Shown here: one piece after another, positions 8,918 to 9,513 of the stretch
Layout of the letters: every line of letters starts with the position of its first letter
Position numbering within the stretch: the stretch's first letter is position 1
Translations under genes and position numbers: made by a program
Assembly: GCF_044324875.1 (NCBI RefSeq)
Contig: NZ_CP172185.1
DNA: 64,000 nt
Source of the DNA: Escherichia coli
Lineage (GTDB): Bacteria; Pseudomonadota; Gammaproteobacteria; Enterobacterales; Enterobacteriaceae
Strand: one strand, 5' to 3'
Notes under the pieces: generated by a model
Databases searched by the model: none
Seen by the model: only the letters and a program-made list of their open reading frames with translations
Told to the model about the DNA's origin: nothing

Positions 8918-9160
8918 TTACTGGGTACTGGTGGTCGTGGTTGTTGTGGTCCCGGTATTAGAACCATCACCGCCACCGGTTGCCGCGAGCGCGACACCCA
9001 CCGCCGAGCTTACGGTGCTGACGCTGGTCGCGGAGGAACTACCCGCCGAAACCGACGTTGCTGCCGACCCTGCCGCTTCGCCCACCTGTACAGGTGCAGC
9101 CCACGCAGAAGTCGCCGCAAGCGCAGATATGGCAAAAATGCCATACAGAACTTTTTTCAT
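8918..9160 (-). CDS. yjbE: YjbE, small secreted Ala/Ser/Thr/Gly-rich low-complexity protein (80 aa)
   Basis: [80 protein letters not shown]; first gene of the yjbEFGH cluster. Confidence 0.85.
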
Positions 9161-9468
9161 AACAATTTCCCTTCATTGAATGAATGGAGATTTACCCAAA
9201 AACATTTCGGGCGGGATCGAGTATACACAACTAAAGCATGCGAATTACGGTGTGGGGAATTAGCGATGGGGTTTTAGGATAATTGGAATGAATATCAAAT
9301 ATAAGTTTCAACTTATATATAAATAAGATTAAAAATCAAAAAGTTAAAATAGAATCAAAAATAATCAACCTACGTATTTTCCGAAATCAATCACGATTAA
9401 AAATTTATTTTAGGATTAACCTCACAGCATGATTTCCGTTAAATCACAGACAAGGGGATTTATCTGAT

Positions 9469-9495
9469 AAAAAATGCCGACATAACGTCGGCATT
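9469..9495 (-). terminator. Rho-independent terminator of pgi
   Basis: Minus-strand hairpin AATGCCGACGTTATGTCGGCATT followed by TTTTTT, 19 bp downstream of the pgi stop. Confidence 0.75.
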
Positions 9496-9513
9496 GTTAT
9501 TAAGGTTATTTAA

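Follow-up and report, generated by a model that had tools for sequence, protein, structure and literature searches.

The locus described here raises the question of what yjbE, a gene of 80 codons with a strongly biased composition, encodes, and of how the AT-rich DNA directly upstream of it takes part in its expression. Both lie in a stretch of 64,000 nucleotides of Escherichia coli DNA, which was analysed at its full length and is referred to as the window. A sequence-only reading of this stretch had described a secreted, repeat-prone and possibly O-glycosylated peptide, expressed from curved, H-NS-silenced promoter DNA with phased A/T tracts under the control of the Rcs envelope-stress system. 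That reading turned out to be right on the identity of the gene and the Rcs control and plausible on the export of its product, but wrong on repeat-proneness, phasing and curvature. The locus is the already described head of the stress-induced yjbEFGH exopolysaccharide operon, and the observation is real but ordinary. We consider it very probable that yjbE and its control region form the head of this operon with activation by Rcs via boxes placed around an AT-rich core of architectural function.

Identity of the locus

A 761-bp query around the locus found its counterpart in 5,425 of the 5,426 complete E. coli genomes, and the genes annotated beneath the match were yjbF, yjbE and pgi. The encoded protein matched Pfam PF11106 with residues 1-79 on the 79-position profile (113.6 bits against a gathering cut-off of 27.9, E=5e-33), and the Pfam match together with the RefSeq annotation confirms that the gene is yjbE. 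RefSeq protein WP_000757333.1 is identical to YjbE of the window, of K-12 and of two unrelated strains. The window is E. coli chromosome, and the order on the minus strand is pgi, terminator hairpin, spacer, yjbE, yjbF, yjbG and yjbH. This is the same locus as the yjbEFGH operon of K-12 (Ferrieres et al. 2007, Microbiology 153:1070), with an identical YjbE and the same pgi-yjbE-F-G-H order. A survey with one genome per species carrying YjbF gave 80 Enterobacteriaceae loci; YjbE was found in 79, all of which keep the yjbE-F-G-H order, and the pgi-yjbE synteny was kept in the Enterobacteriaceae species whose fetched locus extended to pgi. The coordinates given previously for the coding sequence and the spacer were exact:

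8918-9160, minus strand: yjbE coding sequence, 80 codons including the signal peptide, stop codon at 8918-8920 (open reading frame list, Pfam and RefSeq)
9161-9513, no strand assigned: pgi-yjbE spacer, with the pgi stop codon at 9514

K-12 differs in carrying a 145-bp REP pair right after the pgi stop codon, which the strain of the window does not have. This pair of REP-type palindromic elements (L001:1862-2359) is present at the position of the 9513/9514 junction in many other strains as well, and many matches span ~906 bp for the 761-bp query.

Rcs control and conserved boxes upstream of yjbE

The operon is activated by RcsA-RcsB according to Ferrieres 2007, as that work is cited in PMC5651002 and PMC5461412, and it has been linked in the literature to the production of an uncharacterised exopolysaccharide. 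With colicin M, yjbEFGH was strongly induced alongside other Rcs-regulated genes (log2 4.3-5.7; PMC3599342). The yjbE promoter locus of K-12 has been described with two promoters, two sites for RcsB and one for IHF, and this locus excludes ParB in vivo even with rifampicin, while deletion of the locus removes the ParB dip (PMC6238139). Taken together with a conserved RcsAB-type box, these reports bear out the Rcs dependence that had been proposed for the gene.

The control region was compared in 65 species with a complete pgi-yjbE spacer. Short conserved blocks alternate in the alignment with variable DNA, and positions -1 to -71, counted upstream from the ATG, are almost invariant. The following elements were recognised, beginning at the gene:

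9168-9173, minus strand: Shine-Dalgarno-like AAGGGA, 7 nt upstream of the ATG (by reading of the sequence; -30 to -1 almost invariant in the 65 species)
9220-9225, minus strand: candidate -10 hexamer TATACT, -65 to -60, in 64 of the 65 species, inside the invariant GTTGTGTATACTCGA block
9271-9288, minus strand: box D, TTCCAATTATCCTAAAAC, -128 to -111, with the RcsB right-half-site-like TCCTAAAAC
9334-9346, plus strand: match to the IHF consensus, AATCAAAAAGTTA (WATCAANNNNTTR), -186 to -174
9371-9386, minus strand: box A, TTTCGGAAAATACGTA, -226 to -211, with an inverted TCCGAAA half-site, conserved in the 59- and 65-species alignments
9411-9424, minus strand: box B, distal RcsAB-type box of 14 bp, TGAGGTTAATCCTA, then AAAT to 9407, with TGAGGTTAATCCTAAAAT at -264 to -247 (phylogenetic footprinting)
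9456-9468, minus strand: box C, ATCAGATAAATCC, -308 to -296, an RcsB-like half-site adjoining the pgi terminator, with a conserved GGAATTATC(T/C)GAT block in the 59-species alignment
9280-9420, no strand assigned: AT-rich core of the control region, 141 bp with a guanine and cytosine (GC) content of 19.1%
9473-9495, minus strand: pgi intrinsic terminator hairpin, usable in both directions, with a 10-bp stem followed by TTTTATCAGA (terminator scan)

The check for an RcsAB box led to box B, which agrees with the RcsAB consensus TaAGaatatTCctA at 6 of 6 strongly conserved positions and at 10 of 14 overall. Its core, T.AG.....TC..A, was found on the same strand between -300 and -250 in 64 of the 65 species. 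Read on the opposite strand, box B in addition fits the lower-affinity RcsB box TNRGAN4(A/C)CTNA, as defined in PMC7913699, without a mismatch, and box A is one mismatch away from that box. A 2026 preprint describes TCCTAAAAT as the canonical right half-site of RcsB and includes yjbE among its motif hits (bioRxiv 10.1101/2025.05.13.653802). The motif WWWWTCC(T/G/C)(A/C) occurs four times on the minus strand between 9271 and 9468, with boxes C, B and D in one orientation and box A inverted. A left half, as in a full RcsAB box, is present in box B alone; boxes A, C and D are candidate half-sites. At the equivalent position and orientation the IHF match was exact in 16 of the 65 species and had at most one mismatch in 44, compared to 19% in shuffled controls.

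The arrangement resembles that of the RcsAB-box promoters of wza/cps, rcsA and the Erwinia ams genes (Wehland and Bernhard 2000), as the 14-bp pseudo-palindrome of yjbE fits every strongly conserved position, lies far upstream of the coding region of an exopolysaccharide operon and, according to the literature, belongs to an operon whose expression depends on RcsA, although four weakly conserved positions deviate from the consensus. Unlike these promoters, the yjbE box has three more half-site-like boxes and an IHF-type site beside it, distributed along ~200 bp of AT-rich DNA.

The single exception for TATACT is one locus (L053), in which the hexamer is found only elsewhere. A consensus sigma-70 scan of 8800-9600 gave 0 sites and no full match, which is expected of an activator-dependent promoter. 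The predicted fold of the 5' leader was no better than that of shuffled sequences (z = -0.3), and as the leader hardly varies, it offers no material for testing covariation.

The AT-rich core between the boxes

The spacer (353 bp) has 31.2% GC, compared to 52.3% for the window. Only 0.009% of all 141-bp segments in the 64 kb are as GC-poor as 9280-9420, and every one of them is located there. The AT-richness reported upstream of yjbE was thus confirmed, except that the upper ~40 bases of the region that had been named belong to the pgi terminator hairpin (9473-9495) and not to promoter DNA. An AT-rich core is found in all 65 species, with a minimum GC fraction over 141 bp of 0.17-0.32, at ~90-355 bp upstream of the ATG and mostly between -290 and -95.

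While the composition is kept, the letters of the core vary strongly. The proximal 110 bp are at least 95% identical in 5,420 E. coli genomes, whereas megablast with 130 bp of the AT core retrieved 682 of 5,426 genomes, of which 239 had 80-90% identity. Among six aligned Escherichia sequences, including K-12, 31% of the sites in the core were variable compared to 5.5% in the proximal 110 bp, and the mean pairwise identity was 0.87 (minimum 0.78) in the core, 0.975 in the proximal part and 0.99 in the coding sequence. The distances between the boxes behave differently. Box B most often lies 209-211 bp from TATACT (44 species), less often 196-199 bp (13 species) or 185-187 bp (7 species); box D lies 42-43 bp upstream of TATACT in 8 species and 53-55 bp in 54; and the usual distance from box B to box A is 49 bp (50 species), with 38 bp in 7 species and 32 bp in a single one. 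The distance from box B to box C was 43-45 bp in the 42 species where the pattern located box C. Where these distances differ, they do so by ~11-12 bp or about one helical turn at a time, and such quantised spacing with variable letters fits a spacer in which composition and face-of-helix geometry matter and the letters do not. A distal RcsAB complex that is brought to the promoter via an IHF bend would give this spacing behaviour, and the argument from helical turns, drawn from aligned sequences, is suggestive.

The same variability could also come from an unconstrained spacer that has drifted to low GC, with only the short boxes being functional. AT-biased mutation pressure is common in bacteria, the core is the most variable part of the locus, and the spacer downstream of lysC (13040-13169) is variable as well, with megablast matches in 3,771 of 5,426 genomes, 2,870 of those at 90-95% identity. 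Drift alone does not explain why the distances between the boxes shift solely by steps of ~11-12 bp or why most species retain an IHF-like site within the core. Furthermore, a control of 130 bp from the pgi-lysC spacer, with ~39% GC, was at least 99% identical in 5,418 genomes, showing that moderately low GC alone does not bring the variability of the AT core. We therefore regard simple drift as unlikely, if still worth weighing. Slightly better placed, but doubtful, is the model of the sequence-only reading, in which the region is a curved promoter silenced by H-NS and de-repressed by Rcs activation. The extreme AT-richness and its maintenance in the 65 species speak for it, as does the occupation of the locus by protein independently of transcription (PMC6238139); in addition, the related gene rcsA is silenced by H-NS, as cited in PMC12057083. 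The structural features on which this model was built did not hold. The spacer contains 23 AnTm tracts of at least 4 bases, but their spectral power at 10-11.2 bp was not above that of dinucleotide-preserving shuffles (0.44-0.98 of the shuffles reach the observed value), and the claim of phased tracts was not confirmed. Curvature predicted with a wedge model peaked at 14.4 degrees per turn at 9361. This value reaches the 98.6th percentile of the window, yet shuffles of the same composition had a higher mean maximum (16.9), and 82% of them exceeded it; the DNA is thus not predicted to be more curved than its composition implies. Moreover, the H-NS nucleation motif TCGATAAATT had no match with up to 2 mismatches in 9161-9513, compared to 83 such matches elsewhere in the window, our literature search found no paper linking H-NS to yjbE, and the AT-rich tract is just ~150-250 bp long. 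Binding of H-NS to the AT core is nevertheless plausible on composition.

Proposed mode of activation

The preferred reading, activation by Rcs around an architectural AT core, can be put as follows. RcsA-RcsB would bind the full box at 9411-9424, ~200 bp upstream of TATACT (~205 bp from the centre of the box to the inferred start), and the RcsB-type half-sites at 9271-9288 and 9371-9386, together with the IHF-type bend site at 9334-9346, would bring this distal complex to the promoter. Transcription would start ~7 bp downstream of the invariant TATACT, and from its position we infer a start near 9213 and a leader of ~52 nt. As TATACT has no recognisable -35 element, the promoter would need activation. 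The AT core would mainly be an architectural spacer, in which base composition and a length in whole helical turns matter and the sequence does not. In addition, nucleoid proteins such as H-NS may bind there and hold the operon silent in unstressed cells.

Several points weigh against this proposal. The published RcsB box TNRGAN4TCYNA did not occur anywhere in the window, and the 4 places at which the RcsAB consensus fitted with up to 3 mismatches all lie outside the spacer; box B, with 4 mismatches at weakly conserved positions, was missed at this setting and was recovered through phylogenetic footprinting alone. The boxes were assigned from the sequence and may not coincide with the published sites (Ferrieres 2007). 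A distance of ~205 bp between the full box and the inferred start is far for direct activation, and the distal box may instead serve a second, upstream promoter, as two promoters are annotated. The spacing classes come from a handful of independent indels in related species, and for this reason the helical-turn argument is only suggestive. Finally, a literature search did not find a functional study of YjbE.

The match to the small RNA family STnc430

A different explanation for the conserved upstream blocks is offered by Rfam, which has a family for this position:

9357-9505, plus strand: match to RF02053 (STnc430, a predicted antisense small RNA), 86.1 bits against a gathering threshold of 47, E = 8e-15, over the full model length

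Its orientation is antisense to pgi as well as to yjbE, and it extends to the shared terminator. The blocks would then be a small RNA gene running on the plus strand from ~9357 to the terminator at 9495, and besides the score, well over the gathering threshold, a TAAAAT at 9345-9350 has -10 spacing from 9357 and the terminator hairpin can act in both directions. The family itself rests on an unverified candidate. In Table S3 of Sittka et al. 2008 (PMC2515195 supplement), STnc430 is placed between pgi and yjbE and belongs to class V (not newly detected); neither the control nor the Hfq co-immunoprecipitation library gave a cDNA read (0 in each), and the entry for the Northern blot is 'np'. RNAalifold on 59 species gave -0.9 kcal/mol with a covariation term of -0.02, which is essentially no consensus structure, and the helices of the Rfam model were 73.5% paired in these species compared to 72.8% in column shuffles (pairing was at least as high in 104 of 500 of them), and their covariation score was 0.141 compared to 0.137. 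The letters behind the high score are exactly the RcsB-type boxes and the terminator. Based on the lack of covariation, the 0 reads and this origin of the score, RF02053 probably models regulatory DNA plus a terminator and not an RNA gene, and we hold an STnc430 gene at this place to be very unlikely. A further Rfam candidate in the neighbourhood, isrH at 8858-8904, had 17 bits against a gathering threshold of 45 and was dismissed as a chance match.

Composition, export and constraint of YjbE

Ala, Ser, Thr, Gly and Val make up 79% of YjbE and 88% of its 59-residue mature part, which has zero aromatic residues, one Asp and one Glu. The length of 80 residues and the dominance of these five amino acids agree with what had been noted before, and so do the mixed codons of the Thr run (ACC ACA ACA ACC ACG ACC ACC). 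Two parts of the protein were distinguished:

9098-9160, minus strand: predicted Sec signal peptide, residues 1-21, with cleavage before APV (by inspection: basic n-region, hydrophobic core and A-x-A motif)
8921-8977, minus strand: C-terminal motif GGGDGSNTG-Thr7-ST tail, with the Thr7 run at 8930-8950; the tail is nearly invariant in 79 species

By inspection, the n-h-c pattern and an AWA-AP motif, with predicted cleavage between the two parts, were present in all 66 distinct orthologue sequences. The earlier description of YjbE as a small secreted peptide is plausible in view of this conserved putative signal peptide with its cleavage motif. The AlphaFold2 model had low confidence, with a mean predicted local distance difference test score of 53.7 and a predicted template modelling score of 0.21, and showed helices at residues 3-17 (the signal peptide) and 44-61 with coil elsewhere. 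After Sec export and cleavage of the signal peptide, the mature protein of 59 residues would be largely disordered and would act in the envelope together with the lipoprotein YjbF, the GfcC-like YjbG and the GfcD-like outer-membrane protein YjbH.

In the 79 species YjbE has 80-83 residues and is 77-98% identical, with a nearly invariant tail that ends in Q or R; Thr7 is present in most of the species and a Thr-rich tail in every one. The coding sequence is at least 95% identical in 5,420 E. coli genomes. Of 60 genomes taken at even intervals through the whole ranking, 58 have it at a length of 243 nt, the two exceptions being an allele with a 6-nt deletion and an IS1 insertion. In strain EC25 (L005:1665-2684) an IS1A lies inside yjbE, which is annotated there in two pieces and represents a natural knock-out allele. 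Compared with 57 species that have a YjbE of 80 residues, the median ratio of nonsynonymous to synonymous substitutions (dN/dS) of yjbE was 0.08. Over codons 52-80 the proportion of synonymous differences (pS) was 0.415 and that of nonsynonymous differences (pN) 0.008, with all four Thr codons being interchangeable. As the Thr codons vary synonymously while the amino acids are nearly fixed, the Thr run is kept by selection on the protein and not by repetition of the DNA. The tail of YjbE is nearly constant across the Enterobacteriaceae through purifying selection.

These data bear directly on the idea that YjbE is a slippage-prone or O-glycosylated surface peptide with a strain-variable Thr run, which we judge to be highly improbable. 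It is the Thr/Ser-rich composition that suggests it, and a rare Thr5 allele exists in strain GPEC349-628, in which ACA ACA has been lost from Thr7. However, the DNA of the Thr run, examined for tandem repeats, had no unit that occurs more than 2 times, and the length of the gene and the Thr run proved essentially invariant across strains and species under strong purifying selection. YjbE is thus not repeat-prone. Invariance across strains had been named beforehand as one of two refuting outcomes; the other, a promoter with no dependence on H-NS or Rcs, is countered by the published Rcs control. For the glycosylation part, a Pfam scan found no glycosyltransferase gene in the yjbEFGH operon. O-antigen on the Ser/Thr residues of the paralogue GfcA has been the subject of speculation by Larson et al. 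(PMC8592465), and consequently the idea that YjbE may be O-glycosylated, which the invariant Thr run does not refute, is not new.

YjbE has few relatives in databases. A profile search of 1.84 billion representative proteins returned 37 relatives only. In the distant ones the signal peptide, a hydrophobic segment rich in Gly/Ala/Val and a GGxDGSxT-poly-Thr end are still present. A word-indexed protein search with YjbE returned mainly fragments and frameshifted variants, and the exact 80-residue protein was absent from the protein cluster collection in which it was looked up.

Comparison with GfcA

GfcA (YmcD), which has been stated to be entirely uncharacterised (PMC11494523), is encoded at the head of gfcABCDE-etp-etk, the operon for the group 4 capsule, ahead of homologues of yjbF, yjbG and yjbH, as is the case for yjbE. 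Its layout is also like that of YjbE, running from a signal peptide through a stretch rich in Thr/Ser/Ala/Gly and a hydrophobic Gly/Val/Ala segment to the C-terminal GDG...NT..TTTSTTR. However, there was no significant pairwise similarity between the two proteins (BLASTP E = 65), and GfcA had no match to the Pfam YjbE family at E up to 1. GfcA is also longer (101 residues), with a hydrophobic segment that is long enough for GfcA to be annotated as an inner-membrane protein. In K-12, an IS1D is located 33 bp upstream of gfcA.

It is conceivable, though we would give it little weight, that the tail of YjbE and the similar one of GfcA serve as the attachment or recognition element of a peptide-linked polysaccharide. 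YjbF, YjbG and YjbH would in that case export or anchor a small proteoglycan-like molecule and not a free or lipid-linked glycan, which would explain the pN of 0.008 in the tail despite freely drifting codons.

Other features of the locus

The remainder of the operon occupies 5336-8804. A scan of the four operon products with NCBIfam found no model for any of them, and the three genes downstream of yjbE were assigned with Pfam and RefSeq:

8166-8804, minus strand: yjbF, Pfam PF11102 (YjbF/GfcB), with an annotated GTG start at 8804
7432-8169, minus strand: yjbG, Pfam PF20616 and PF06251 (GfcC N- and C-terminal domains)
5336-7432, minus strand: yjbH, Pfam PF06082 (YjbH)
8827-8850, minus strand: perfect 10-bp hairpin AUAACCACAC-UCCG-GUGUGGUUAU between yjbE and yjbF (fold of this spacer z = -3.5)

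The core stem of the hairpin (UAACCACAC/GUGUGGUUA) is the same in nearly all of ~70 listed species, and the outermost pair and the second base of the loop vary. In most species it is followed by UUAUUUU; the U-tract of E. coli is weaker. To judge from its sequence, the hairpin may be a partial terminator or attenuator, or a stabiliser of a short transcript with yjbE only. Some strains (JA0257, L003:305-492; L033) carry in this spacer an ERIC/IRU-like insertion of ~73 bp (...GTGAGTCCCCGGGAGCATAGATAACTATGTGACCGGGGTGAACGAGTGC...), which the window does not have.

The yjbH reading frame of the window is intact (698 residues); in strain MEW, which is identical to the window over the 761 bp, RefSeq annotates yjbH (L002:1-133) as a pseudogene with an internal stop. 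In ribosome profiling of RyhB (PMC4666370), yjbE had a log2 change of -1.01 (p = 0.026) on one measure and of 0.14 (unchanged) on the other, and is marked there as a novel candidate that is still unverified. Next to the core upstream of yjbE, the most AT-rich patch of the window is the one at 28212-29136, with a GC fraction down to 0.28 over 301 bp, and covers a spacer and the start of the open reading frame at 28532-30718 on the plus strand. The latter encodes 728 residues with a ShET2-enterotoxin N-terminal domain and ankyrin repeats, and looks like arpA.

Significance

The locus is textbook material, with a named gene, a published operon and Rcs dependence, and annotated RcsB and IHF sites; little is at stake, and as all essentials are already in the literature its interest is low. 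Automatic annotations of a small RNA at the pgi-yjbE spacer should be read with caution, and YjbE should not be handled as a variable repeat protein. On the contrary, few parts of the operon are as constrained as its Thr7 tail, and mutagenesis of this tail would offer a clean way into the biochemistry of the system. The control region, in which composition and helical-turn spacing are kept while the sequence turns over, offers a natural example for the study of long-range RcsAB/IHF promoter architecture.

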